Positions 22,462-64,000 of a stretch of DNA of 64,000 nucleotides are shown here, piece after piece. The stretch lies in assembly GCA_947499155.1 (NCBI GenBank), contig CANMND010000004.1:76633-140632 (forward strand), given 5' to 3'. Origin of the DNA: an uncultured Sphingomonadales bacterium. Lineage in GTDB: Bacteria; Pseudomonadota; Alphaproteobacteria; Sphingomonadales; Rhodothalassiaceae. The translations under genes and the position numbers were made by a program. How positions within the stretch are numbered: the stretch's first letter is position 1; every line of letters starts with the position of its first letter. The notes beneath the pieces were generated by a model. It saw nothing but the letters and a program-made list of their open reading frames with translations, ran no database searches and was not told the DNA's origin.

Positions 22462-22535
22462 GCGGGTGTAGCTCAATGGTAGAGCTCTTGCTTCCCAAGC
22501 AAGTGACGAGGGTTCGATTCCCTTCACCCGCTCCA
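22462..22535 (+). tRNA. tRNA-Gly (anticodon CCC)
   Basis: Cloverleaf read by eye. Acceptor GCGGGTG/CACCCGC, D-arm GCTC-AATGGTA-GAGC, anticodon arm CTTGC-TTCCCAA-GCAAG, T-arm GAGGG-TTCGATT-CCCTT. CCA is encoded. Confidence 0.9.
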
Positions 22536-45351: not shown

Positions 45352-45450
45352 ATGGTGGAAGCCGACACGACCCGCCGCGGATTCGTTACGGCTGCTTCCT
45401 TCCGGACCTGACCGGATTGGCGAACGCGTCGTCCGCGCCGACTTCCACGG
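45352..45450 (-). ncRNA. ffs: signal recognition particle RNA (small/4.5S type)
   Basis: The minus strand reads ...GTGGAAGTCGGCGCGGACGACGCG...GGTCAGGTCCGGAAGGAAGCAGCC...CGCGGCGGGTCGTGTCGGCTTCCAC. It contains the universally conserved GGUCAGGUCCGGAAGGAAGCAGCC domain IV core, closed by a long terminal helix. Located just upstream of dnaX, as usual. Ends are approximate. Confidence 0.85.
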
Positions 45451-53068: not shown

Positions 53069-54529
53069 ATGCGCGACAGGTCAGGGACACGGACGACCGC
53101 ACATATCTTAATTTTACAACATGATTCCGCGATATGGAGGGGATGGCTGGGAGTTACCGCGGGCTATTTGCTTCTGGCACTCCTTGCACTTCTGCTTTTG
53201 GCAGTTCAAGGGCAGTCGGCTGCCGCACAGTCTGAGACCCGCTATACCAATCCAAAGGTTTTCACGCTCAAGACAGGCATTGCCACTGGCCGGATGGTTT
53301 ATATCGGCGTAGGCGGCGATATTGACGGCCAGATCAATCCCACACTGGTCGTTCATGAAGACGAAACAGTCCAGATAAACCTGATCAATGGCGAAGGCGC
53401 CGAGCATGATGTGGTGATCGACCAATATGCGGCGCGGTCGTCAATTGTGGTTGGCATGAACGCCTCGTCCACCTTTTCCTTTACTGCAAGCAAGGTGGGA
53501 GAATTCGCTTATTTCTGTTCCATAGCCGGCCACCGTTTGGCGGGGATGGAAGGCCTGATCAAGGTGATCTCCGGCTCGCGGAAAGCTCTTGATTCCGATA
53601 TCGCCGATATTGTGCGTGATCCCGCTGATTTGCCCGGACCTATCGGCCAGCGCCAGCCTCAAGTCGTCCGAATCGATATGGAAACGGTGGAACTGGTTGG
53701 CCAGCTTGATGATGGCACATCCTATGTTTACTGGACTTTTGACAATAAGGTTCCTGGTCCCTTCGTCCGGGTGCGTGTGGGCGACACGGTTGAGGTGCAC
53801 CTGACGAATGCCGCTGACAGTGTGATGATGCATTCCATAGATTTTCATGCCGCAACTGGTCCCGGCGGCGGCGCGGATTATACCCAGATAGCGCCGGGTG
53901 AAGAGGCGGTGCTGACGTTCAAGGCGTTAAAGCCTGGTATTTACGTTTATCATTGCGCCACACCCAGCGTTGCCCACCATATCACCAGCGGTATGTATGG
54001 CCTGATTCTGGTGGAGCCGGAAGGCGGTCTGCCCCAGGTGGACCGTGAATTCTATGTCATGCAGGGCGAGCTTTATACTGTTGAGCCCTTTGGCACCCAG
54101 GGTGAGATGGAAATGGACTATGACAAGCTGATATCCGAGCGTCCGGAATATTTTCTGTTCAATGGCTCTGTCGGGGCCCTGACTCGCTCGCATCCGCTTT
54201 ATGCGCGTGTGGGTGAAACAGTCCGCATCTTTTTTGGTGTGGGCGGCCCCAATTTTACGTCATCCTTTCACGTGATCGGTGAGATATTTGACAATGTCTA
54301 TCCACTGGGCAGCGTCACTTCACCACCATTGACCAATGTGCAAACCGTTACAGTCCCACCGGGCGGCGCGACAATCGTCGACTTCAAAATTGATCGCGGC
54401 GGCCACTATGTACTGGTCGACCACGCTCTGTCACGAGCCGAACGCGGCCTATCCGGCTATCTGATCGTTGACGGCCCCAAAAACGACGAAATAATGCACC
54501 AGGGCCCCGCCAACCAGCCCATGGAGTAA
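53069..54529 (+). CDS. nirK: copper-containing nitrite reductase with extra N-terminal cupredoxin domain
   Basis: Core NirK ligand blocks MMHSIDFHAATGPGG and YVYHCATPSVAHHITSGMYGLILVEP. Preceded by a ~100-aa cupredoxin module with its own type-1 Cu ligand set (AEHDVV ... YFCSIAGHRLAGMEG) and a signal peptide. AAGGGGA Shine-Dalgarno. Confidence 0.9.
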   Translation: MRDRSGTRTTAHILILQHDSAIWRGWLGVTAGYLLLALLALLLLAVQGQSAAAQSETRYTNPKVFTLKTGIATGRMVYIGVGGDIDGQINPTLVVHEDETVQINLINGEGAEHDVVIDQYAARSSIVVGMNASSTFSFTASKVGEFAYFCSIAGHRLAGMEGLIKVISGSRKALDSDIADIVRDPADLPGPIGQRQPQVVRIDMETVELVGQLDDGTSYVYWTFDNKVPGPFVRVRVGDTVEVHLTNAADSVMMHSIDFHAATGPGGGADYTQIAPGEEAVLTFKALKPGIYVYHCATPSVAHHITSGMYGLILVEPEGGLPQVDREFYVMQGELYTVEPFGTQGEMEMDYDKLISERPEYFLFNGSVGALTRSHPLYARVGETVRIFFGVGGPNFTSSFHVIGEIFDNVYPLGSVTSPPLTNVQTVTVPPGGATIVDFKIDRGGHYVLVDHALSRAERGLSGYLIVDGPKNDEIMHQGPANQPME

Positions 54530-54541
54530 GTGAGTGAAAGG

Positions 54542-54571
54542 CAGGCGCGAGGGTGGAGACTCTCGCGCCTG
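54542..54571 (+). terminator. hairpin terminator candidate after nirK
   Basis: CAGGCGCGAG (54542-54551) pairs perfectly with CTCGCGCCTG (54562-54571) across a 10-nt loop. The downstream tract is only weakly T-rich. Confidence 0.5.
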
Positions 54572-54697
54572 GTTGATGTTGGGCTTTGCGGCTGGCTGCT
54601 CTGCGGATTTTTGGGAGAACTCGCCTGTTTATAATGATGATTCCCAATTGCGCTTATTGGGTATTGCCAGTGTTGCTCAGGAGATATAGCCTACTCA

Positions 54698-54848
54698 AGG
54701 GCTTACAGGCAGAATTGTTGTCCGGATTCGAGACATATGTACGAACGTCAGGATAGTACTTGTGCTCCCCTGAAACTTAATGCGTTGTTGCTACATTGTT
54801 TTGCTGCTTCGATGCCCGAATGTTCGCGTAGGAGTGCCTGTAAGCCTT
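54698..54848 (+). ncRNA. candidate retron msr-msd non-coding RNA bracketed by a1/a2 inverted repeats
   Basis: AGGGCTTACAGGCA (54698-54711) is complementary to TGCCTGTAAGCCTT (54835-54848): 12 consecutive Watson-Crick pairs plus G-U and A-U. An unpaired G (54712) follows a1, where a branching G would sit. a2 ends 12 nt before the proposed RT start. Internal msr/msd hairpins were not resolved by eye. Confidence 0.5.
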
Positions 54849-54859
54849 CTTACTTACGA

Positions 54860-56641
54860 GTGAATGTGTCTCATCTGACCAAATTAAAAGACGCGACGTC
54901 CAGAAAAGAACTTGCAGTGATCTTGGGATATGAGCCCAAGGTCTTAACCTCGATTGTCTATAAAATACCGCCAAAAGATAAGTACACGACCTTTGAAATC
55001 TATAAGAAATCTGGCGGAAAGCGGACGATCAAAGCCCCGTCCCCCCGGCTCAAGAAGTTACAGAAGCACCTTTCCCACGTGCTCTATCAATGTCTTGCGG
55101 AGATCGAGAGGGAGCGCGGCGCTAAACCGATCTCTTTCGGATTTCGTAAGGGCCGCTCTATTGCTGAAAATGCCTCACGCCATAAGAGGCGGCGCTGGGT
55201 GCTTAACCTGGATTTAGAAGACTTTTTTCCTTCCTTCAATTTTGGTCGAGTCCGCGGATTCTTTCTCGAAGACAAGGCGTTTGAACTGCATCCACAGGTG
55301 GCAACGACAATCGCACAGATTGCATGCGATGGTACTGCATTGCCGCAGGGAAGCCCTTGCTCACCCGTGATTTCGGAATTCATTGCTCAGATTCTGGATA
55401 TGCGTCTGGTTCGGTTGGCCAAGAAATATGGCGTAACTTACACACGTTATGCCGATGATATTACGTTCTCTACCAGTCAAAAAGACTTCCCGATCGGTTT
55501 GGCAAACGTCGATACGAATGACCCTGCCGTGTGGCATCTCAGCGAAGAACTCGAAAACAAAATCGAAAACTCTGGGTTTACTATTAATAAAGCCAAAACA
55601 CGCATGCATGTTCGTGGTAGCAGGCAGATGGTCACTGGTCTGGTGGTCAACGAAAAGGTCAACATTCGCAGTGATTATTACCGACGCGCACGTGCCATGT
55701 GCGATATGCTCTTTCAGACGGGGCAGTATTATAAGGATGTGATCCAACCCGATGATGAAAAAGATGAACCGCAGCCTGATTTGATCGATAACTTAAGCCC
55801 TCTTCAGGGTATTCTTGGCCACATCTACTCGGTGACTCAAACTCAGGAGCGCAGGGAAATCACCGAGCAGCGGAAAAATCCGCGTGCGATCCGCAAGCTT
55901 TTCCGGAGATTTCTTTTTTATAAATATTGTATGGCTCTTCAGGAGCCATTGATTATCACTGAAGGTAAAACAGATCCGGTCTATTTGCGTGAAGCCGTCA
56001 AGCGCCGCACAAAATTCCATCCCGCACTTGGAACGCTTGGAATGGGTGGCTTCGAGCATGCTGTGAGGTACTTCAATTACGACAGTCTAGCGCACGAAGT
56101 GATGGATTTGGGAGGCGGTACAGGTGATTTGAAATCGATCCCCCTTGACTATCTCCGTAATCTGAAGCCGTCGCAAGGGACACATAAGCCGTTTGCCCAT
56201 ACGCCGATGAAGTATCCGGTCATCATCGTCCTCGACAATGATGAGGGCTTGACTGCCGTTGCGAGCACAGTAAAGAAGAATTTCGGGGTCGAATTCAACA
56301 CTGAGTCGACAGCTGATTTTTATCACGTGACCGAAAACCTGTATATCGTGAAGACTCCAGAGGACGGGTCCAAAAACACATGTATCGAGGACATGTTCCC
56401 GAAAAAAGTGCTGGAGACAAAACTTAACGGGAAGAAATTTAATCCTGCCAGCAAGATTAATTCAACCGAGGAATACAGCAAGGAAGTATTTGCGAAATCT
56501 GTTGTGAAGGCCAGGGCTGACGAAATCGACTTCTCCGGATTTGATCCGTTGCTTGAACGCATCTGTACAGTGATCAAAAATCACGCGGAGACGGTCGAGT
56601 CTTGCACAACGCTTGCTGAAGGCGAAGCCGCTTCTCAATAA
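54860..56641 (+). CDS. retron-type reverse transcriptase fused to a C-terminal TOPRIM domain (Ec67-like architecture)
   Basis: RT blocks: GGKRTIKAPSPRLKKLQKHL, NASRH (NAxxH), LNLDLEDFFPS, LPQGSPCSP, YADDITFS, and the retron hallmark SRQMVTGLVVN. C-terminal third: IITEGKTD (TOPRIM Glu) and VIIVLDNDEG (DxD). By recollection it is collinear with E. coli retron Ec67 RT. Start set to in-frame GTG 54860 because the first 41 listed codons (Cys-rich) overlie the ncRNA candidate. Confidence 0.85.
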   Translation: MNVSHLTKLKDATSRKELAVILGYEPKVLTSIVYKIPPKDKYTTFEIYKKSGGKRTIKAPSPRLKKLQKHLSHVLYQCLAEIERERGAKPISFGFRKGRSIAENASRHKRRRWVLNLDLEDFFPSFNFGRVRGFFLEDKAFELHPQVATTIAQIACDGTALPQGSPCSPVISEFIAQILDMRLVRLAKKYGVTYTRYADDITFSTSQKDFPIGLANVDTNDPAVWHLSEELENKIENSGFTINKAKTRMHVRGSRQMVTGLVVNEKVNIRSDYYRRARAMCDMLFQTGQYYKDVIQPDDEKDEPQPDLIDNLSPLQGILGHIYSVTQTQERREITEQRKNPRAIRKLFRRFLFYKYCMALQEPLIITEGKTDPVYLREAVKRRTKFHPALGTLGMGGFEHAVRYFNYDSLAHEVMDLGGGTGDLKSIPLDYLRNLKPSQGTHKPFAHTPMKYPVIIVLDNDEGLTAVASTVKKNFGVEFNTESTADFYHVTENLYIVKTPEDGSKNTCIEDMFPKKVLETKLNGKKFNPASKINSTEEYSKEVFAKSVVKARADEIDFSGFDPLLERICTVIKNHAETVESCTTLAEGEAASQ

Positions 56642-56716
56642 TTAATACGCTAAAGCAATGTGTTGGAATGCTCTTTTATACAAGACATATGGCGGAGCGG
56701 GAGTCCGCATTTTCGG

Positions 56717-56813
56717 CATCCATATATGTCCACAGAATTCTATATTTTTAATTATTTTCAATGGCTTATTAATTTTTCTGGTTTCTCGACATCCATAATG
56801 ATCCACAGTAATC
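56717..56813 (+). repeat. two ~24-nt direct repeats in the AT-rich leader of the integrase gene (arm-type or operator site candidates)
   Basis: CATCCATATATGTCCACAGAATTC (56717-56740) and CATCCATAATGATCCACAGTAATC (56790-56813) share the blocks CATCCATA, ATG and TCCACAG. The second copy ends 34 nt before the int ATG. Confidence 0.5.
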
Positions 56814-56847
56814 TGGCCCATATTAATGGGTAGATTTATGGGTATAT

Positions 56848-58086
56848 ATGGCGCGACCTATTCACAAACTCTCTGCGAGAAAAGCAGCATCAGAATCGAA
56901 ACCCGGTCTCTATTCAGACGGGGGCGGCCTTTACCTGCAGGTGAGCAAGTCTGGCTCAAAGAGCTGGATTTACCGTTTCATGATGAACCGGAAAGTCCGG
57001 GACATGGGTCTGGGGTCGTTACGGGATTTCTCACTTTCCGAGGTTAGAGATAAGGCCCGGGAATGCAGGCAATTGGTGCATGACGGAATCGACCCTATCG
57101 AACAAAGAAAGTCCGCTCGAAGCGCCCGCATGGCGGAAAACCGGAAGAGTCAATCGTTCGAAGACTGCGCGAACGACTATTTGAAGACCCATTCATCTGC
57201 CTGGAAGAATCCGAAGCATCGCCAGCAGTGGGAAAATACACTTTCCACTTATGTGTATCCGATCATCGGCAAACTGTCGGTGAAGGACATCAATACGCAT
57301 CTCGTCAAAAAGGTTCTCGATCCTATCTGGACGACAAAGACAGAAACCGCAACGCGCGTGCGTGGTCGTATCGAGAGAATTCTGGATTGGGCAACCGTGC
57401 AAGAGTTGCGGCAAGGAGAAAACCCGGCGCGCTGGAAAGGACATCTGGACCATCTACTGCCAGCCCCCACCAAACTGAAACGCGTACAGCATCACAAGGC
57501 ACTGCCTTACCAGGACATGTATGACCTGATGCTAGAACTGACAACTGCCGATGGAACAAGTGCTCTTGGACTGCGCTTTCTTATTCTAACGGCGGCCCGC
57601 AGCGGTGAAGTGCGGCTCGCCACCTGGAATGAGATCGACCTCGAGAAAAAGACCTGGACCATTCCTGCCGAACGGATGAAGGCCGGAAAGGAACACATTG
57701 TCCCGTTGTGTTCTCAGGCAATCGACATTCTCAAGACTATGGAGAAATATCGCGAAAGCGATCTGATATTCTCCGGCACCAAAAAAGACCGGCCCCTTTC
57801 AGACATGGCGTTCACGCAATTACTACGCCGCCTGGACAAAACGGACATCACCGCTCACGGTTTCCGTTCCAGCTTCCGTGACTGGGCAGGTGAAACAACT
57901 GCATTTCCCAGAGAAGTTATTGAAGCGGCCCTCGCGCACCAACTCAAGGATAAGACTGAGGCCGCTTATTTCAGAAGCAACTTGCTGGAAAAACGCCGCA
58001 AGCTAATGGACGCCTGGGATAAGCATTGCCGGACCATTTCCGGCAAAGCCATGAACATTATAAAGTTCGACACTGCAAAACTCTGA
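56848..58086 (+). CDS. tyrosine recombinase, P4/CP4-57-type integrase
   Basis: N-terminal DUF4102-like arm-binding region (LSARKAASESKPGLYSDGGGLYLQVSKSGSKSWIYRF). Catalytic residues in context: TAARSGE (R), HGFRSSFRDW (H-x-x-R), ALAH and AAYFRS (Tyr). Confidence 0.9.
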   Translation: MARPIHKLSARKAASESKPGLYSDGGGLYLQVSKSGSKSWIYRFMMNRKVRDMGLGSLRDFSLSEVRDKARECRQLVHDGIDPIEQRKSARSARMAENRKSQSFEDCANDYLKTHSSAWKNPKHRQQWENTLSTYVYPIIGKLSVKDINTHLVKKVLDPIWTTKTETATRVRGRIERILDWATVQELRQGENPARWKGHLDHLLPAPTKLKRVQHHKALPYQDMYDLMLELTTADGTSALGLRFLILTAARSGEVRLATWNEIDLEKKTWTIPAERMKAGKEHIVPLCSQAIDILKTMEKYRESDLIFSGTKKDRPLSDMAFTQLLRRLDKTDITAHGFRSSFRDWAGETTAFPREVIEAALAHQLKDKTEAAYFRSNLLEKRRKLMDAWDKHCRTISGKAMNIIKFDTAKL

Positions 58087-58106
58087 TCAGTAAGGAGAAA
58101 CAGCCA

Positions 58107-58898
58107 ATGAAATTAAAAAATAATCCACCAAGGTGGGCATTGATAATCGATGCCCTTGAAGTCGCGGCAATCAAGGCACCGCTTTATTGTGCGGCCTTTA
58201 TTACTATCACCATGATGGCTATCATCTACATAGTGCCAGTGAATTATATTCCAACAAATGACCAGATCACTTCATACATGCCTGCGCCATTGCAGTCCGA
58301 TTTCTTCTTAAATACCCCATTACCCCACCTCCTGTTTATAGAAATATTGGGACTGGCGGCAGTTGCATATGCACTCCAAAAAGTAGGCTTAGGATTTCAA
58401 TGGGATAAGGCAATTTCCAAACGTTATGCCCAATGCCGCAAAACTTGGCGGAGGTATGATCGTCGGCTCTCTGATCGCAAACAGCGTTTAAAAGAAATAA
58501 GAGTTCGTCGCTCAGAGTTGTTACACCTTGTGCGGCTTCTTTCTGCAGCCTTGAAGGAAACCAAGCCAGAAAAGATAGAAGAAAAGAAAATCAACAAAGC
58601 CAATGCACATTATCTTTTGCATTCCATGCCACTTTCAGAAGTCGCAGATTTTGCGTCTCAATATCGGAAGCGGTCAGATAAGTGTGCCTGGCACGCAGAT
58701 GTTGTCGAATCTTATCGAAAACTCTGGGAAGAAGACGAAACCTTCAAAAAGGCATCAATTTCCAAAAGGTTAAATCTCGCGGCCGTTCAAGCTGGAATGG
58801 GGGGTGCAAGCCTTACTTCACTCAAGACAATTTTCTATGCATATCCAGGTGAGCACTTCGCAAATCTAATGCGAGAAATCCTTAAATTGACAAAGTGA
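58107..58898 (+). CDS. hypothetical membrane protein (two N-terminal TM segments, basic coiled-coil linker, cytoplasmic C-terminal domain)
   Basis: ATG 58107 is 7 nt after AAGGAG. Hydrophobic stretches LYCAAFITITMMAIIYIV and LLFIEILGLAAVAYAL, then an Arg/Lys-rich helix RRLSDRKQRLKEIRVRRSELL. No motif recognised. Confidence 0.6.
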   Translation: MKLKNNPPRWALIIDALEVAAIKAPLYCAAFITITMMAIIYIVPVNYIPTNDQITSYMPAPLQSDFFLNTPLPHLLFIEILGLAAVAYALQKVGLGFQWDKAISKRYAQCRKTWRRYDRRLSDRKQRLKEIRVRRSELLHLVRLLSAALKETKPEKIEEKKINKANAHYLLHSMPLSEVADFASQYRKRSDKCAWHADVVESYRKLWEEDETFKKASISKRLNLAAVQAGMGGASLTSLKTIFYAYPGEHFANLMREILKLTK

Positions 58899-58975
58899 CC
58901 TGGTCAGTGACCTGATTTCTGGCTTCAAATAGGGTTGCCTGCACTCCGACGTTCAACCAACAACGACGGAGTGCA
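58896..58975 (+). promoter_or_regulatory. repeat cluster in the gap before alpA: TGACC/GGTCA half-site triplet plus a 13-bp-stem hairpin (operator or oriT candidate)
   Basis: TGACC-T-GGTCA-G-TGACC at 58896-58912. TGCACTCCGACGTT (58940-58953) is complementary to AACGACGGAGTGCA (58962-58975) with one A-A mismatch and an 8-nt loop. The hairpin ends 3 nt before the alpA ATG. Confidence 0.45.
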
Positions 58976-58978
58976 ACA

Positions 58979-59179
58979 ATGAAAACAGAACGACTTCTAC
59001 GGATTAAGGATGTTTGCCATCAGACGGGCTTTTGTCGGTCTCACATATACAATCTAATCGGCAAAGGCACATTTCCCCGCCCCGTTGGGCTGGGACGTGC
59101 CCGGCGCTGGCGGCAAAGTGATATAGACCTTTTTATCTCCAACCTCCCGGTTGTCAGCGTCGACGGGGGGCTCAAATGA
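58979..59179 (+). CDS. AlpA-family transcriptional regulator / excisionase-like HTH protein
   Basis: 66 aa. LLRIKDVCHQTGFCRSHIYNLIGKGTFPRPVGLGRARRWRQSDIDLFI matches the AlpA/MerR-like phage regulatory pattern. ATGA overlap with the next ORF. Confidence 0.85.
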   Translation: MKTERLLRIKDVCHQTGFCRSHIYNLIGKGTFPRPVGLGRARRWRQSDIDLFISNLPVVSVDGGLK

Positions 59180-59523
59180 AACAAGATGTGCAACGCCAAA
59201 TCAGCTTTCGCGTGAGCCCGACCGAAGCCGATATCATCAAAAATGCTGCACGGGCATCTGGTCAGAAACAACGCGACTGGCTGCGACTGGCCGTTCTTTC
59301 CGCAGTCGATTCACAAAGTCGCGGCTTCCGCTCAATTGAAGAGAAGATCGAGCTACAACTCGTCCACACGAGTTTTCTTTTTGAGTTCTTGATGCTGCGT
59401 GCAAAAGGGAAGGTGCCTCGTAATCAAAATGAACATCCGGCCTGGTGCCGTCAATTGTACCGCAAAGTGAAGGCCAATCTAACAGAACAGCATTTTCTGA
59501 GCACGAAAGGAGAGGATCTATGA
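59176..59523 (+). CDS. ribbon-helix-helix relaxosome accessory protein (MobC-like)
   Basis: N-terminus RQISFRVSPTEADIIKNAARASGQKQRDWLRLAVL fits a beta-strand/helix/helix RHH. Upstream of a relaxase in the same overlapping operon. Confidence 0.55.
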   Translation: MKQDVQRQISFRVSPTEADIIKNAARASGQKQRDWLRLAVLSAVDSQSRGFRSIEEKIELQLVHTSFLFEFLMLRAKGKVPRNQNEHPAWCRQLYRKVKANLTEQHFLSTKGEDL

Positions 59524-60170
59524 ATAGGTTTCCTCTCCCGTTGCCTCCGGTTAGAGCGAGCCTGACAGGCGCACTTGCAGCAACAAGCGTTTTAGCACTT
59601 GGTCTGGACACGCACGAGATTCATCTATGGTGGCTCGAGATTTTCCGCGACATAGACCGATGGCTTGGCTGGACTGGCTTCACCTCTCACGACGACTGGA
59701 TGTACCTGTACAAAAATTGGGACTCTGCCGCTTTCTTGAAAGTAAACTCGTATCTGTCGCTGGCCGTATTGCTATTCGCTATCACGACAATAGCAAGCTG
59801 GGTCATGCTCTTAGCTCGCTTGCGGCTCATAAAACGACTGCAGGAAGTCCACGGCATGATCGAGGCTATCAGGTTGCACTATACAAACCTGCAGCACCGC
59901 ATTCCAAATCTGGAACAGCAAGCAAACACAGCCTTAGAGACAGTCAACGACATAGTGTCAGAACTTGCTGTTCTTAAAGAATGGATTGAGCGAGCCAGGG
60001 AAGAACCGCCTGCTGGCTCCTCACCAGAGGTAGTATTCGACAACACTGCGGCCAGCTCTTATCCCTCTATACGAGAACGGGAGCATATGTCCCAGCTCGA
60101 AGAGGAGGAGGAAGAAGCAGAGAAAGAAAAAGAAAAAGAGAAAAATTACGACTTCGACCTTGAACTATAA
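59520..60170 (+). CDS. hypothetical TM/coiled-coil protein with acidic tail ending DFDLEL
   Basis: ATG 59520 overlaps the previous TGA (ATGA). Hydrophobic segment YLSLAVLLFAITTIASWVMLLA, heptad-like region LQEVHGMIEAIRLHYTNLQHRIPNLEQQANTALETVNDIVSELAVLKEWI, and tail EEEEEEAEKEKEKEKNYDFDLEL. Confidence 0.6.
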   Translation: MNRFPLPLPPVRASLTGALAATSVLALGLDTHEIHLWWLEIFRDIDRWLGWTGFTSHDDWMYLYKNWDSAAFLKVNSYLSLAVLLFAITTIASWVMLLARLRLIKRLQEVHGMIEAIRLHYTNLQHRIPNLEQQANTALETVNDIVSELAVLKEWIERAREEPPAGSSPEVVFDNTAASSYPSIREREHMSQLEEEEEEAEKEKEKEKNYDFDLEL

Positions 60171-60181
60171 GGGGATGCATC

Positions 60182-62980
60182 ATGTTATCTATCGCGTCTC
60201 TATCGGCTGCCGCAGCCGCCAAAAGTTATTACGATGCTGACAATTATTACACCAAAGCCGACGGCCAATCACCCAGTCATTGGCATGGCACCGGGGCATC
60301 AAATCTTGGCCTGGTGGGCCCGGTAAATGCCCACACGTTTGAGCAAGTTCTCGAAGGAAACCTGCCCAACGGCACCAAGCTCGGGCGCGTGATCAAAGGC
60401 GAACGAGTTCATGCTCCCGGTACGGATCTCACTTTTTCTGCGCCCAAATCAGTGTCTATTCTGGCACTTGTGGATGATCGTAAGGCGTTGATTGAGGCTC
60501 ATCAAAAGGCTGTTTCTGCAGCGCTAGACTGGATCGAAAAAGAAGTCGTCACATCACGCATATTCGATAAGGCGGAAAGACAACAGGTCAAAACGGCGAC
60601 AGGAAATTTGGTTGCGGCGCTGTTTCTCCACGACACCTCCCGTGCTCTTGACCCCCAACTCCACACGCATGCGGTCATTGCAAACGCATCTCAAGGGCCG
60701 GATGGCAAATGGCGATCCATCCAAGAAATGCCGCTCTTCCAGAACAAGATGCTTATAGGCCAAATGTACAGGAACGAGTTGGCAGCCAATCTGGCAGAGC
60801 TGGGTTATGCCGTGGAAAAATCCGGCAAGAACGGCGAATTCGAAATCACGGGAGTGGACAAGAGTATCCGAGAGATGTTCAGCAAGCGATCCATTGAAGT
60901 GCGCGAGGCAGCCAGCCTGTTTGGTACCTCGTCACCAGCTGACCTGGATCGCGCCGCTCTTATGACACGGGCGAGTAAGCAACATGTCGATCGAGAGAAG
61001 TTACTGTCAAACTGGCAACAACAGATGGCAGAGAAAGACCTAAGTCTGAGGTCATTGCCGTCCCCTGGTAAGTCACTAAAGCCTGCTAAAGCCGCAGATG
61101 AGGTGCTCAAACAAGCTATGTCACACATTTCGGAACGCAACGCTGCTTTTCTGCCAAAAGATCTGCTGAAAGAAGCTATGCGCCTGTCCATCGGATCGCA
61201 TCGCTATGGGGAGCTTGAGCAGGCAATGAATGTAATGCTTGAAAGAGGCGATCTGGCGAAAGGCGAGATTGGCAATCAGCACTATCTTACAACACCTGCG
61301 ATGCTGGAGCTGGAACGTTCAACGCTTGAAAAAATGGAAGAAGGCAAAGGTGCCAGCAAGCCCATTGTCCTGCCGCATCATGTGGACAGGTATCTTCAGG
61401 ACAAGACCCTCACAAAGGGCCAACAAGCTGCCTTGCACACCTCCATAGAAACACTTGACCGGACGATCGGCATCCAAGGGTTTGCCGGAGCCGGTAAAAC
61501 AACGCTTCTCAAGGAGGTGAAAGCCCTGTCCGAAATGGCAGGACGCGAAGTCATCGGATATGCACCCTCCGGTCTGGCTGCAGACAACCTTCAATCAGAA
61601 AGCGGGATTCCGTCCACAACTCTTCAAACCTTGCTGACAAAATTCAAGGGACTGACCGCGGGGCGCACCATGTCAGATAATGCCTATAAGGTCGAACGAG
61701 AAAGGTGGAGTAACCGGGTCGTGGTTGTTGATGAGGCATCGTTCGCCTCGTCAAAGCAAATGAATGACCTCTTGCACATCGCCAATGACCTGCAATTTGG
61801 CCGTCTCATCTTGGTGGGAGACTATAAGCAACTCGACGGAGTGAATGCAGGCAAACCTTTCTATCAGTTGCAGTCCGGCGGAATGACGACCGAGCATATG
61901 CCCGAGAATATGCGTCAACAACGAGATCAACATCGTGAAGCCGTGGAAGCCATCAAAGACGGCGATGTGGCAACTGCCATCAAACATCTTAGCGGCGACA
62001 TTCAGGAAACCTCATGGGATAATCTAACAAGGGAAACTGCTCAGGCGTGGCTAGACTTACCCGACAGTGACCGTGACCATGCACTGATTATTGCCCCAAC
62101 GCATTCACATCGCCGAGCCATCACTGATTACGCCAGAGGTCAACTGGTGAAAGAAGGAAGCCTCGGAGAGAAAGCCGTCGAGCATCCTATTTTACGTCCT
62201 GTAAATCTGACGACGGAAGAACGCACCCTGGCCAGCAGCTATCAGGCGGGTCAAATTGTCCAATTCACCAAAAACTATAAGTCTATCGGCATTGAGGCTG
62301 GCGATTACCTGGCAGTGGAGAAAGTGAATGACCGGTCAGGAACAGTGATGCTGGAAAAGGGCGGTGATATTATCGCCTGGCATCCTTCCAGATTGGCCGC
62401 CCGGACGGATGGGGCCACGGCACTTTATGATCAGGACAGGATTGATCTTCGGCAGAATGATCTCATCCGCTTCACCCGAAGCGATAAAGACCGCGACCTT
62501 TTCAATTCACAAACGGCGACAATTCTTTCTGTCAACGAGCGCGATGTCTCGTTCCAGATGAAAGATGGCCGCAAGATCACCTTGCCGCGCAATGATCCTG
62601 CCATGCAACATATCGACTTTGGTTTGGCCGCAACCATTCATGCCGCACAAGGGCAGACCGTCGATCACGTCATTGCTCTAGCCGACTCTCGCAGCGCCTT
62701 TTCCGCAAACCAGAAGATGTTCTATGTAACTATCTCGCGGTCCCGGCATGGCGTCACGTTGTTCACAGATGATGCCGATCGCCTGCAGCGAAACCTTGAA
62801 GCCAATACAGGCGAACGCTTAAGCGCAATGGAAGTCCACAAAGCACAGGAACAGGAAATTGCACCGGTCCCGGATCAAGTGCCATCCCTTGAGCACGAGA
62901 AACAAGAACATAAACACGAGCCCGAATACGAACTGGAAAGAGTTATTGAGAAGACCATAGACTTCGAGCTGGAACTGTGA
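60182..62980 (+). CDS. MobF-family conjugative relaxase with RecD-like helicase domain (TrwC/TraI/TraA type)
   Basis: N-terminal relaxase with a Tyr pair in SYYDADNYYTK and the His triad LHDTSRALDPQLHTHAVIAN. Helicase Walker A GFAGAGKTTLL, Walker B VVVDEASF, and late motif TIHAAQGQTVDHV. AAGGGGA Shine-Dalgarno. Confidence 0.9.
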   Translation: MLSIASLSAAAAAKSYYDADNYYTKADGQSPSHWHGTGASNLGLVGPVNAHTFEQVLEGNLPNGTKLGRVIKGERVHAPGTDLTFSAPKSVSILALVDDRKALIEAHQKAVSAALDWIEKEVVTSRIFDKAERQQVKTATGNLVAALFLHDTSRALDPQLHTHAVIANASQGPDGKWRSIQEMPLFQNKMLIGQMYRNELAANLAELGYAVEKSGKNGEFEITGVDKSIREMFSKRSIEVREAASLFGTSSPADLDRAALMTRASKQHVDREKLLSNWQQQMAEKDLSLRSLPSPGKSLKPAKAADEVLKQAMSHISERNAAFLPKDLLKEAMRLSIGSHRYGELEQAMNVMLERGDLAKGEIGNQHYLTTPAMLELERSTLEKMEEGKGASKPIVLPHHVDRYLQDKTLTKGQQAALHTSIETLDRTIGIQGFAGAGKTTLLKEVKALSEMAGREVIGYAPSGLAADNLQSESGIPSTTLQTLLTKFKGLTAGRTMSDNAYKVERERWSNRVVVVDEASFASSKQMNDLLHIANDLQFGRLILVGDYKQLDGVNAGKPFYQLQSGGMTTEHMPENMRQQRDQHREAVEAIKDGDVATAIKHLSGDIQETSWDNLTRETAQAWLDLPDSDRDHALIIAPTHSHRRAITDYARGQLVKEGSLGEKAVEHPILRPVNLTTEERTLASSYQAGQIVQFTKNYKSIGIEAGDYLAVEKVNDRSGTVMLEKGGDIIAWHPSRLAARTDGATALYDQDRIDLRQNDLIRFTRSDKDRDLFNSQTATILSVNERDVSFQMKDGRKITLPRNDPAMQHIDFGLAATIHAAQGQTVDHVIALADSRSAFSANQKMFYVTISRSRHGVTLFTDDADRLQRNLEANTGERLSAMEVHKAQEQEIAPVPDQVPSLEHEKQEHKHEPEYELERVIEKTIDFELEL

Positions 62981-63105
62981 TGGTGCGGAAATTGGTGGGA
63001 GCAACGTGCTATCTACGCTGCTACCAATCGCCAGAAAACCCAAGCATATCAACAGTTAGCCAAATGATATCAGCTTTTTTTCATGCTCCAAATTTTGCAT
63101 GTCAT

Positions 63106-63153
63106 TGAAAAGAAAGAAGAACACCCGGTCGCTAGCCCTCTAGCATCGGGTGT
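63106..63153 (-). terminator. rho-independent terminator closing the minus-strand cargo operon
   Basis: ACACCCG (63121-63127) pairs with CGGGTGT (63147-63153), with an inner GCTAG/CTAGC stem. On the minus strand it is followed by TCTTCTTTCTTTTC. Lies 31 nt beyond the stop at 63185. Confidence 0.65.
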
Positions 63154-63184
63154 GAAACTTTAACGACGCAGTCGTAAAAACTAT

Positions 63185-63475
63185 CTATCCGATATCCGGC
63201 ATCAAACGCCATGATCGACGTTGTTGAAGCTGGGACCAATCAGGGCCGTTTGGCTCGTCTGTGAAAACCAATTGGTTGCCCTGCAGCTTGCGTGACCTGC
63301 ACCCTGTAATTTCGGCGACTAAAAGCAGAGTCTGTCCCATAAGAGACAGATATATGAAAACGCAGTTCAATGAAAAATAGAAGGCCTGTGTGCCGACAGA
63401 CAGATGACTAAATGCTGCACGCCCGGCTAAAAGAGCTGTGCCATGAGCGATAGCGGATTCCAAGATTGCTTTCAT
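63185..63475 (-). CDS. small hydrophobic ORF (96 aa), possibly the distal part of a stop-interrupted membrane protein gene
   Basis: Hydrophobic stretches (AIAHGTALLAGRAAF, FYFSLNCVFIYLSLMGQTLLLVAEI). Same frame as the helicase and as a 66-codon open stretch upstream. The ATG is immediately preceded by an in-frame TGA. A terminator follows. Confidence 0.3.
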   Translation of the reverse strand: MKAILESAIAHGTALLAGRAAFSHLSVGTQAFYFSLNCVFIYLSLMGQTLLLVAEITGCRSRKLQGNQLVFTDEPNGPDWSQLQQRRSWRLMPDIG

Positions 63476-63679
63476 TCAAACGCTTGGAAGCTGAACGGCG
63501 GGCCAAAGCAAAGCTGGAGCACGATCTTTGAGGGATTTAGGCTGGGAAAGGTAGTAAATGAAAGTTGCGTTTTCACAGACGGTCAAGACAGCGCCAAGCA
63601 GACTATAATACGTGAGGCCGGCCCGAAAGCTAAGCTGGGCAATTCTGTTAAAAATCTGAGTTCTAGTTTTATTGATCTA

Positions 63680-64000
63680 CTAAAAATAAACTACTGGAAT
63701 ATCGGCCTTTTCCAAAAGATTGATCAGACCTCTAATATGATCCACCCCGCCACTTTCTCGAGATTGCGTAAAATAAACGCGCTCTCGCGCACGTGACAAT
63801 GCAACGAAAAAAGCATTTGTCTCTTCCTCCCTGTTCCGCCGATAAGAAAAGAAGGCTTTTTCGTGCAGGCCAACAAAGATTACCGTGTGATACTCGAGTC
63901 CTTTGCTCTTGTGGATGGTCATAAGACGAACTTGCCCCTTGCCCTCCACGGCATCGATCAAGGCCCCCCAATTATTCGCTTTGGCTGCGCATTCGGTCAT
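63680..64000 (-). CDS. UvrD/Rep/PcrA-like superfamily 1 helicase, C-terminal end only (gene continues beyond the window)
   Basis: Motif VI region VRLMTIHKSKGLEYHTVIFVG and ...FFVALSRARERVYF. The listed Met sits at the window edge and is not a real start. Confidence 0.75.
   Translation of the reverse strand: MTECAAKANNWGALIDAVEGKGQVRLMTIHKSKGLEYHTVIFVGLHEKAFFSYRRNREEETNAFFVALSRARERVYFTQSRESGGVDHIRGLINLLEKADIPVVYF

Follow-up and report, generated by a model that had tools for sequence, protein, structure and literature searches.

A probable type I-C retron of the Ec67/Eco2 family adjoining a tRNA-Ser-type mobilizable element in an alphaproteobacterium

Introduction

A 64,000-nucleotide stretch of DNA from an uncultured Sphingomonadales bacterium (contig CANMND010000004.1; hereafter, the window) holds an open reading frame (ORF) in which a reverse transcriptase (RT) appears to be joined to a TOPRIM nuclease-like domain. 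An earlier note, made from the letters alone, took this ORF for a single-gene retron with the architecture of Ec67 from Escherichia coli, suspected a non-coding RNA (ncRNA) upstream of it, and saw a linkage to a mobilizable island. The locus thus raises three questions: whether RNA and protein together make a complete retron, to which family they belong, and whether the retron travels with the element next to it. Judged from its sequence, the locus is very probably a complete type I-C retron of the Ec67 (Eco2) family, composed of a structured ncRNA and a single RT-TOPRIM fusion gene. The two parts lie on the same strand, with 17 nt between the 3' end of the ncRNA and the start of the gene. Loci used for comparison are designated by L numbers.

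An RT-TOPRIM fusion of the Ec67 family

The protein-coding features are as follows; the 634-amino acid (aa) reading is a longer version of the same frame, discussed below.

54866-56641, + strand: RT-TOPRIM fusion gene, 591 aa from GTG 54866, with a TAA stop at 56639-56641
54998-55612, + strand: RT core, residues 88-292 in the numbering of the 634-aa reading (Pfam RVT_1, E 3.9e-24)
55448-55459, + strand: YADD, window residues 195-198, equivalent to Eco2 Y199-D202
55943-56545, + strand: TOPRIM nuclease domain, from family hidden Markov models (HMMs), mapping to Eco2, and an AlphaFold2 pLDDT (predicted local distance difference test) score of ~90
55961-55975, + strand: EGKTD, residues 366-370, with E366, G367 and D370 equivalent to Eco2 E374, G375 and D378
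56234-56242, + strand: DND, residues 457-459, with D457 and D459 equivalent to Eco2 D460 and D462
56387-56389, + strand: E508, equivalent to Eco2 E515

The translation of the plus-strand ORF ending at 56641 includes ENASRH (the NAxxH motif), RYADDIT, SRQMVTGLVVN, IITEGKTD, VIIVLDNDEG and CIEDMFP, so that the RT hallmarks (NAxxH, YADD and the VTG block) and the TOPRIM motifs listed by the earlier note are all present. There is no separate effector ORF, the neighbours being nirK and int, as had also been stated.

Family-level searches return the same answer over the full length of the protein. The curated cut-off of NCBIfam model NF038237 (retron_Ec67_fus, 'retron Ec67 family RNA-directed DNA polymerase/endonuclease') is 450 bits; the protein scores 682 bits and matches the model from position 1 to 571 of its 572. 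The PADLOC model RT-Toprim_I-C matches at 2.3e-220, spanning residues 42-624 of the 634-aa reading. An E. coli Ec67-family protein gives the same ranking of PADLOC models as the window protein. In a HMMER search against the PDB, residues 4-575 of the query align with residues 5-579 of the Retron Ec67 protein 9lm3_A (E 6.8e-115), and the Retron Ec67/Eco2 chains 9lm3, 9i2f, 9i2g and 9s1f all align end to end (E 7e-115). The full-length alignment with Eco2 has 38-39% identity. Blocks that the earlier note had listed as collinear with the Ec67 RT do fall into register with 9lm3_A (sfnfgrvrgYfl, lakkygCtySryaddit, iitegktd, nlyiv and dgkkfn). These motif and family matches are far beyond chance.

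The AlphaFold2 monomer model has a mean pLDDT of 78.6, rising to ~90 across the C-terminal TOPRIM domain. The top matches in a fold search with this model were the Eco2 chains (E 7e-42 over ~600 columns, covering both domains), and RT-only retron structures ranked far below them. The global TM-score between the monomer model and the Eco2 chains is 0.54, with domain orientations differing. With PADLOC, NF038237, the PDB alignment and the fold search in agreement, the proposed Ec67 architecture of a single-gene retron with RT fused to TOPRIM is borne out, and we hold the assignment of the protein to the Ec67 (Eco2, type I-C) family with high confidence.

Relatives of the protein are numerous. 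Alphaproteobacterial Ec67-family proteins share 65-83% identity with it over 97% of the length, and more than 120 protein clusters lie at or above 65% identity. Several are named 'retron Ec67 family' by NCBI, from Acetobacteraceae (WP_218016666.1), Devosia, Oceanicaulis, Sphingosinicella and Pleomorphomonas; an alphaproteobacterial host, which had been put forward as new, is therefore already represented. No close relative was found in the INPHARED phage set, where the best match is 34% identical. The architecture, family HMMs, structures and mechanism have all been published, and the locus adds no new type of system; the earlier note had rightly called the architecture known.

Could the ORF instead represent another kind of RT system? 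The candidates would be the maturase of a group II intron, a defence RT of the Abi or DRT kind, and a retron of type XI or XII with a different fused effector. The RT portion does resemble the models RT-TIR_XII (4e-104) and RT-Protease_XI (2e-96), and matches more weakly to group II intron RT (52 bits), Drt3a and Drt2. These matches fall mostly on the RT half and far under the respective cut-offs (Retron_TIR 291 bits against 600, group II 52 against 300, Drt 31-33 against 200-390), whereas the I-C models and Eco2 cover both halves of the protein; nor did Rfam find any intron RNA family. We regard a different RT system as scarcely conceivable.

The upstream ncRNA

The region ahead of the gene can be divided as follows.

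54698-54848, + strand: retron ncRNA (msr-msd) from a2 to a1, 151 nt, by fold, covariation and covariance model
54698-54711, + strand: a2 arm, the 5' half of the closing stem, by inverted repeat and covariation
54712, + strand: candidate branching guanosine (priming 2'-OH), directly 3' of a2 in the context GGCA-G-A
54719-54735, + strand: msr stem-loop UGUCCG-GAUU-CGaGACA, by pairing in the alignment
54747-54833, + strand: predicted msd template, with limits by alignment to Eco2 ncRNA landmarks
54749-54772, + strand: conserved CAGG...CCUG hairpin within the msd
54835-54848, + strand: a1 arm, the 3' half of the closing stem, by inverted repeat and covariation

The suspected ncRNA proved to be real by several lines of evidence: an inverted repeat, the fold, covariation, RNAalifold and a covariance model. 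A perfect 12-nt inverted repeat pairs 54700-54711 with 54835-54846, and the segment 54698-54848 folds at -51.8 kcal/mol (z = -3.9), a value reached by 0 of 200 shuffled sequences. We fetched 68 loci encoding relatives of the protein and aligned the upstream regions of the 23 closest with that of the window, giving 24 sequences. The ncRNA is conserved across these 23 loci, with 75-79% nucleotide identity in the closest. Of the 14 pairs in the a2/a1 stem, 9 have compensatory changes, one pair being AU in 12 sequences and GC in the other 12, and pairing is kept in 93.8% of cells. For the whole structure 92.5% of cells are paired and 12 pairs show double changes, compared with 22-48% pairing for slid partners; none of 500 shuffles matched the observed pairing values. 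The msr stem-loop is paired in 100% of the 24 sequences, with one compensatory pair. RNAalifold independently recovers both the a2/a1 stem and the msr hairpin, and adds a stem at the base of the msd (CUUAaUGC / GCGUAGG).

A covariance model (R1) built from this alphaproteobacterial alignment has the ncRNA as its sole match in the window, at 140.5 bits. Outside the training set, it finds a full-length match directly upstream of the gene and on the same strand in 37 of 41 distant RT-TOPRIM loci, including those of Pseudomonas, Vibrio, Bartonella, Latescibacterota, Lachnospiraceae and E. coli. In the distant set 24 of 26 pairs are compensatory (12 of 13 in the a2/a1 stem and 6 of 6 in the msr stem), in an alignment that was fitted to the covariance model and so favours the structure. 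No Rfam family matched the ncRNA: neither a search of the whole window at gathering thresholds nor one of 54300-55100 with E up to 10 returned a retron msr family, and one chance match to a long non-coding RNA was seen.

The landmarks of the Eco2 ncRNA are a branching rG15 (PMC12405507), termination at G52, and a first template base that is the A of AGGA, followed by G and then by a1. The guanosine at 54712 does not vary among the 24 close sequences, nor when the E. coli Ec67-family ncRNA is aligned, and it is our candidate for the branching G, at the position of Eco2 rG15 (PMC12405507). The sequence around it, GGCA-G-A-TTGTTG, is common to the E. coli Ec67-family ncRNA, as is GCG-AGGAGTGCCT ahead of a1; the flanks AGGCAGAWTTGTTG and GCGWAGGAGTGCCT are likewise found in both the window and E. 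coli RNAs. The single RNA stem-loop of the Eco2 msr, G20-U42 (PMC12405507), corresponds by position to the msr stem-loop at 54719-54735. From these correspondences the predicted msDNA (multicopy single-stranded DNA) would be ~87 nt long, the reverse complement of 54747-54833, starting 5'-TCCTACGCG with a dT templated by A54833. Among relatives the msd measures 75-97 nt, and its centre is conserved neither in sequence nor in length.

Three of the fetched loci, L058 (6001-6516), L019 and L067, appear to hold truncated RT-TOPRIM genes, possibly as a result of decay or rearrangement of the retron. In L058 the match is limited to residues 35-206, although the ncRNA region looks intact, and in L067 it is limited to the TOPRIM half.

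Translation start of the fusion gene

The most likely start is the GTG at 54866, giving the 591-aa product. Homologous proteins (~577 aa) begin with MSHL or MSQL at the codon aligned with this GTG, and a GTG, ATG or TTG follows a GAG-rich stretch at the equivalent position in 21 of 23 related loci. The earlier note had preferred GTG 54860, which is present in the DNA and lies 6 nt too far upstream: it forms part of the conserved, GAG-rich ribosome-binding stretch (GAGTG), relatives do not keep it as a start, and both the homologues and the 21 loci favour 54866.

The public record P0001 (NCBI, 634 aa) starts at ATG 54737, within the msr and 43 codons too early. On this longer reading the supposed ncRNA would be the coding sequence of an N-terminal extension. 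The frame is indeed open from 54737, and tblastn matches reach upstream of residue 44 in some relatives, a similarity that is accounted for by conservation of the RNA gene. The family HMMs and the Eco2 structure, however, begin at residues 42-47 of that reading, the homologues start at the codon aligned with 54866, and a stop closes the frame 0-29 codons upstream in 20 of the 23 related loci. Length differences of the msd, and with it of the upstream region, are not multiples of three among relatives. Covariation also links the a1 arm, which would fall inside the extension, to an a2 arm that precedes the ATG. The objection that a start at ATG 54737 would read through the ncRNA was thus well founded. 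We consider the 634-aa protein highly improbable, and the first 43 codons of that reading are almost certainly not translated.

Catalytic residues and subtype

Residue equivalences with Eco2 were drawn by using as numbering bridge an E. coli Ec67-family protein that, like Eco2, has 586 aa (locus L069). YADD, E366, G367, D370, D457, D459 and E508 are all identical to their Eco2 counterparts, and both the RT and the TOPRIM catalytic centres appear intact. In Eco2, mutation of the YADD or TOPRIM catalytic residues abolishes defence and RNase activity (PMC12916289, PMC12405507).

Type I-C TOPRIM domains are characterized by EGxxD in motif IV, and by DxD in motif V of I-C1 and I-C3 or DxE in that of I-C2 (PMC7736814). 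The combination of EGxxD and DxD seen in the window protein fits I-C1 or I-C3 and excludes I-C2, and the subtype appears most like I-C1. A 'catalytic lysine K562' is named for Eco2 in PMC12405507; no lysine is found there in the bridge numbering of the Eco2-length sequence. The invariant lysine K539, equivalent to Eco2 K546, is a candidate catalytic lysine only.

A model for activity based on Eco2

In Eco2 the RT makes branched msDNA, and a trimer of RT-TOPRIM with msDNA cages the nuclease; the phage DNA endonucleases DenB and A1 degrade the msDNA, and the freed TOPRIM domain nicks tRNA acceptor stems and other RNAs, stopping translation (PMC12916289, PMC12405507). At 38-39% identity, this mechanism probably applies in outline to the window retron as well. 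By analogy, the RT would recognise the msr, prime on the 2'-OH of G54712 and copy ~87 nt of the msd into 2'-5' branched msDNA, with which RT-TOPRIM would assemble into an oligomer whose msDNA cages the TOPRIM active site. Upon infection, a phage DNA endonuclease (DenB or A1 in the case of Eco2) would degrade the msDNA. The freed TOPRIM domain would then act as an RNase, nicking tRNA acceptor stems as well as other RNAs and shutting down translation, possibly by abortive infection (PMC12916289).

Observations that weigh against a complete retron

Several observations count against the reading of the locus as a complete Ec67-type retron, and they concern protein, RNA and regulation. A Pfam search of the RT-TOPRIM protein matched RVT_1 only, so that of the domain search proposed by the earlier note the RT half held and the Toprim half did not; as Pfam offers no Toprim match, the evidence for a TOPRIM domain comes from three other sources: the full-length family HMMs, the structure of Eco2, and conservation of the catalytic residues. 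Where Eco2 has its metal-B serine, S513, the window protein has Cys506. The E. coli relative has Ala at this position and alphaproteobacterial homologues have S, A or C; because of this variation within the family we take the position not to be constrained. The final ~16 codons are unlike those of every relative and are predicted to be disordered.

With respect to the msDNA, the limits of the msd are placed solely by analogy to Eco2. When folded as DNA, the predicted msDNA is no better than shuffled sequence (z = -0.2, relatives ranging from -1.7 to +1.0), and a stable DNA stem-loop is not supported by this modelling for the alphaproteobacterial clade. The centre of the msDNA in the Eco2 structure was built as a three-way junction formed between strands, not as a hairpin; weak folding of the single msDNA therefore does not contradict that structure. 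The msDNA, defence phenotype and oligomer proposed for this locus are carried over from Eco2, and the known Eco2 triggers, T-even DenB and T5 A1, belong to coliphages.

Finally, a search upstream of the ncRNA returned no convincing sigma-70 promoter, and ~10 nt between -35-like and -10-like elements appear to be missing in comparison with the closest relative, L001; for these two reasons expression is uncertain. In many relatives a TTGAC -35-like box stands just upstream of a2, together with a -10-like box (TGCTAAG/TGCTAAAT) ending ~9 nt before it. The window (54660-54697) has GATATAG in place of the latter box, and an alternative TATAAT occurs at 54630-54635.

Such points would suit a decaying or silent Ec67-type relic, its frame intact and its expression or regulation lost, lying beside an integration hot spot (described below). 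The apparent deletion in the promoter-like region and the lack of a clear promoter fit this explanation, as do the replaced C-terminal tail, where nucleotide homology to relatives stops at ~56565-56586, and a central msd hairpin weaker than in several relatives. Against it, the frame of 591 codons is unbroken with every catalytic residue kept, the ncRNA retains all its stems and reaches 140 bits with the family model, the protein remains 83% identical to its nearest relatives with no frameshifts, and the weak folding of the msd as DNA is a property of the whole clade. We judge a relic improbable, and keep to the reading of a complete type I-C retron.

Genomic setting and limits of the cassette

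Upstream of the retron lies the following gene.

53069-54529: copper nitrite reductase NirK, upstream neighbour of the retron

Its best named homologues are from Hyphomicrobiales (Borborobacter, Shinella, Aquamicrobium, Aminobacter and Mesorhizobium), in keeping with the alphaproteobacterial host that the earlier note had deduced; judged by this gene, the host would be placed in that order. NirK has a signal-like N-terminus and, in its N-terminal part, an additional cupredoxin domain (Cupredoxin_1, residues 87-153); its homologues are widespread in Hyphomicrobiales, and a hairpin at 54542-54571 resembles a nirK terminator.

The GC content falls from ~0.55 to 0.46-0.49 over the retron. Nucleotide homology of 75-79% to loci of Sphingorhabdus, Novosphingobium, Porphyrobacter and Gluconobacter is confined to ~54694-56565, and the homology common to relatives covers the ncRNA and the RT-TOPRIM gene and nothing else. 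No part beyond this cassette is shared with relatives in other orders, from which we conclude that the cassette was acquired horizontally as a minimal unit. A further step would be that the ~1.9-kb cassette moves alone, with no mobility gene, between alphaproteobacterial orders (Hyphomicrobiales, Sphingomonadales and Acetobacterales), and that this clade makes a longer, weakly self-structured msDNA of 75-97 nt; we offer this only tentatively and think it rather unlikely. Were it true, the clade may sense a different class of phage nuclease, or cut different RNAs, than Eco2, and, as a diverged counterpart of Eco2, it would be a useful second system for learning how the sequence of the msDNA determines trigger specificity in single-protein retrons.

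In the metagenomic contig L070, synteny with the window extends from 45386 as far as the nirK stop (77-82% nucleotide identity), directly beyond which the two sequences diverge. At ~9490-9515 in L070, ~270 nt past nirK, the sequence CTGGTGAGGCGGGAGGGATTCGGAC resembles the reverse complement of a tRNA 3' end. No tRNA gene was called by ARAGORN anywhere in L070, nor next to the retron in the window. The L070 sequence may be the attachment site (att) remnant of another island, in which case the region 3' of nirK would be an integration hot spot.

The neighbouring mobilizable element

Downstream of the retron, an integrative element begins with the features listed here.

56687-56703, + strand: left att repeat ATATGGCGGAGCGGGAG, reverse-complementary to a tRNA 3' end, unique in the window
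56848-58086: tyrosine integrase int (P4-type), by Pfam
58979-59179: AlpA, by Pfam
59176-59523: NikA-like gene, by Pfam
60182-62980: TrwC relaxase, by Pfam

In addition to these genes, the element includes an ORF of ~300 aa without a Pfam domain. The closest homologues of the integrase, in L071 (89% identical) and L072 (74%), belong to the same int-orf-AlpA-NikA-TrwC module, and in both loci host genes, not a retron, are found upstream of int. The element spans 56687-64000 in the window, continuing beyond its end, 9842-~21000 in L071 and 9840-20029 in L072. In L072, a Kordiimonas locus, the 10.2-kb element is bounded by a perfect 18-nt direct repeat (ATATGGCGGAGCCGGAGG), whose second copy, 10.2 kb off, is the 3' end of a tRNA-Ser(GGA) gene. 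No att direct repeats were found within 54400-64000 of the window, and the boundary was resolved by comparison with the homologous elements: blastn homology to L071 begins at 56689, and three-way homology begins exactly at ATGGCGGAG. The att repeat in the window begins 45 nt past the retron stop. The right end of the element presumably lies at a tRNA-Ser gene beyond position 64000. A hairpin-like sequence at 56692-56708, GCGGAGCGGGAGTCCGC, had been listed as a minus-strand terminator and is better explained as part of the tRNA-derived att repeat.

Since the att repeat and the homology both begin after the retron stop, and since homologous copies lack a retron, the retron adjoins the tRNA-Ser-type integrative mobilizable element and stands outside it. 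The alternative is that the retron is cargo of this element and moves with it, as the linkage to an island drawn in the earlier note would imply. It lies only 206 nt upstream of int, and everything to the right of nirK has a low GC content and is missing from the syntenic L070. This proximity is, however, adjacency only: the elements of L071 and L072 carry host genes upstream of int and no retron, homology starts at 56689 with the att copy of the window placed after the retron stop, and a second att copy was not found between 54530 and 54697. Just 1 of 68 retron-bearing loci has any integrase nearby, and that one shares 27% identity and lies on the opposite strand. Carriage by the element is very unlikely in our view, and adjacency to the integrase is no evidence of island cargo. 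The cargo of the element itself differs between copies: L071 has a 1499-aa ORF without Pfam matches, and L072 a 1034-aa metallophosphatase protein. PADLOC had no match in the unknown ORFs of the element in the window.

Comparison with other retrons

The window retron resembles Eco2 (Ec67, E. coli, I-C1) in having an ncRNA followed by one RT-TOPRIM gene with no separate effector, in the identity of YADD, EGKTD, DND and the second-metal Glu, and in the plan of the ncRNA, such that the E. coli ncRNA is recovered by the model built from alphaproteobacterial RNAs. It differs in ~60% of residues, in an unrelated C-terminal tail of ~16 residues, and in the Cys that takes the place of S513. The msr hairpin is shorter than in Eco2 (6 bp with a bulge versus ~10 bp), whereas the predicted msd is longer (~87 versus 67 nt) and its central part unrelated in sequence. 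A blastn search of the locus against E. coli genomes returned one 61-nt stretch only, leading to the Ec67-family locus L069. The setting also differs: Ec67 was described in a prophage (PMC12916289), and the relative in E. coli GF4-3 sits among replication, DinI, portal and terminase genes, read as P2-like, whereas the window retron is chromosomal, between nirK and the tRNA-Ser-type mobilizable element. In an alphaproteobacterial host, triggers, if any, must come from other phages. The alphaproteobacterial Ec67-family relatives share the ncRNA and the position of the start codon with the window retron, and differ from it in host, flanking genes, central msd and C-terminal tail.

Types XII (RT-TIR) and XI (RT-protease) are sister fusion retrons in RT clade 8 (Mestre et al. 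2020, PMC7736814). They share with the window protein a related RT, as the PADLOC matches given above attest, and a single RT-effector polypeptide, but the fused effector is a TIR domain or a protease instead of TOPRIM; the NCBIfam Retron_TIR match covers residues 56-372 only. The effector of Eco8 (type I-B2) is likewise regulated by msDNA (PMC12916289). Eco8 and the OLD-family nucleases (Gabija GajA and PARIS AriB) have in common with the window protein the two-metal nuclease chemistry of TOPRIM, which there resides in a separate ATPase-TOPRIM protein acting on DNA, whereas the window TOPRIM is fused to the RT, lacks an ATPase and is of the distinct I-C lineage. The Eco8 RT matches the window protein weakly (E 4e-4).

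The biological importance of the locus is modest, as it is one more intact, diverged relative of a retron solved in 2025-2026. The useful by-products are a corrected start codon, a family-wide ncRNA alignment and model, and the demonstration that the island is a mere neighbour. With the alignment and the covariance model, the type I-C ncRNA is described across many phyla; no Rfam family matched this RNA in the window. The conserved flanks beside a variable msd could guide the engineering of Eco2-type retrons as DNA-producing tools in Alphaproteobacteria.

Other observations

An exact 15-nt direct repeat, ATCGAAAACTCTGGG, occurs at 55562-55576 in the RT gene and at 58714-58728 in the unknown 290-aa ORF of the element; it is probably due to chance, although a rough estimate would not lead one to expect it in 9.6 kb. 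Rfam and ARAGORN matches in the window are limited to two housekeeping RNAs, a small signal recognition particle RNA (45353-45447, minus strand, 62.7 bits) and tRNA-Gly(CCC) (22462-22535, plus strand).

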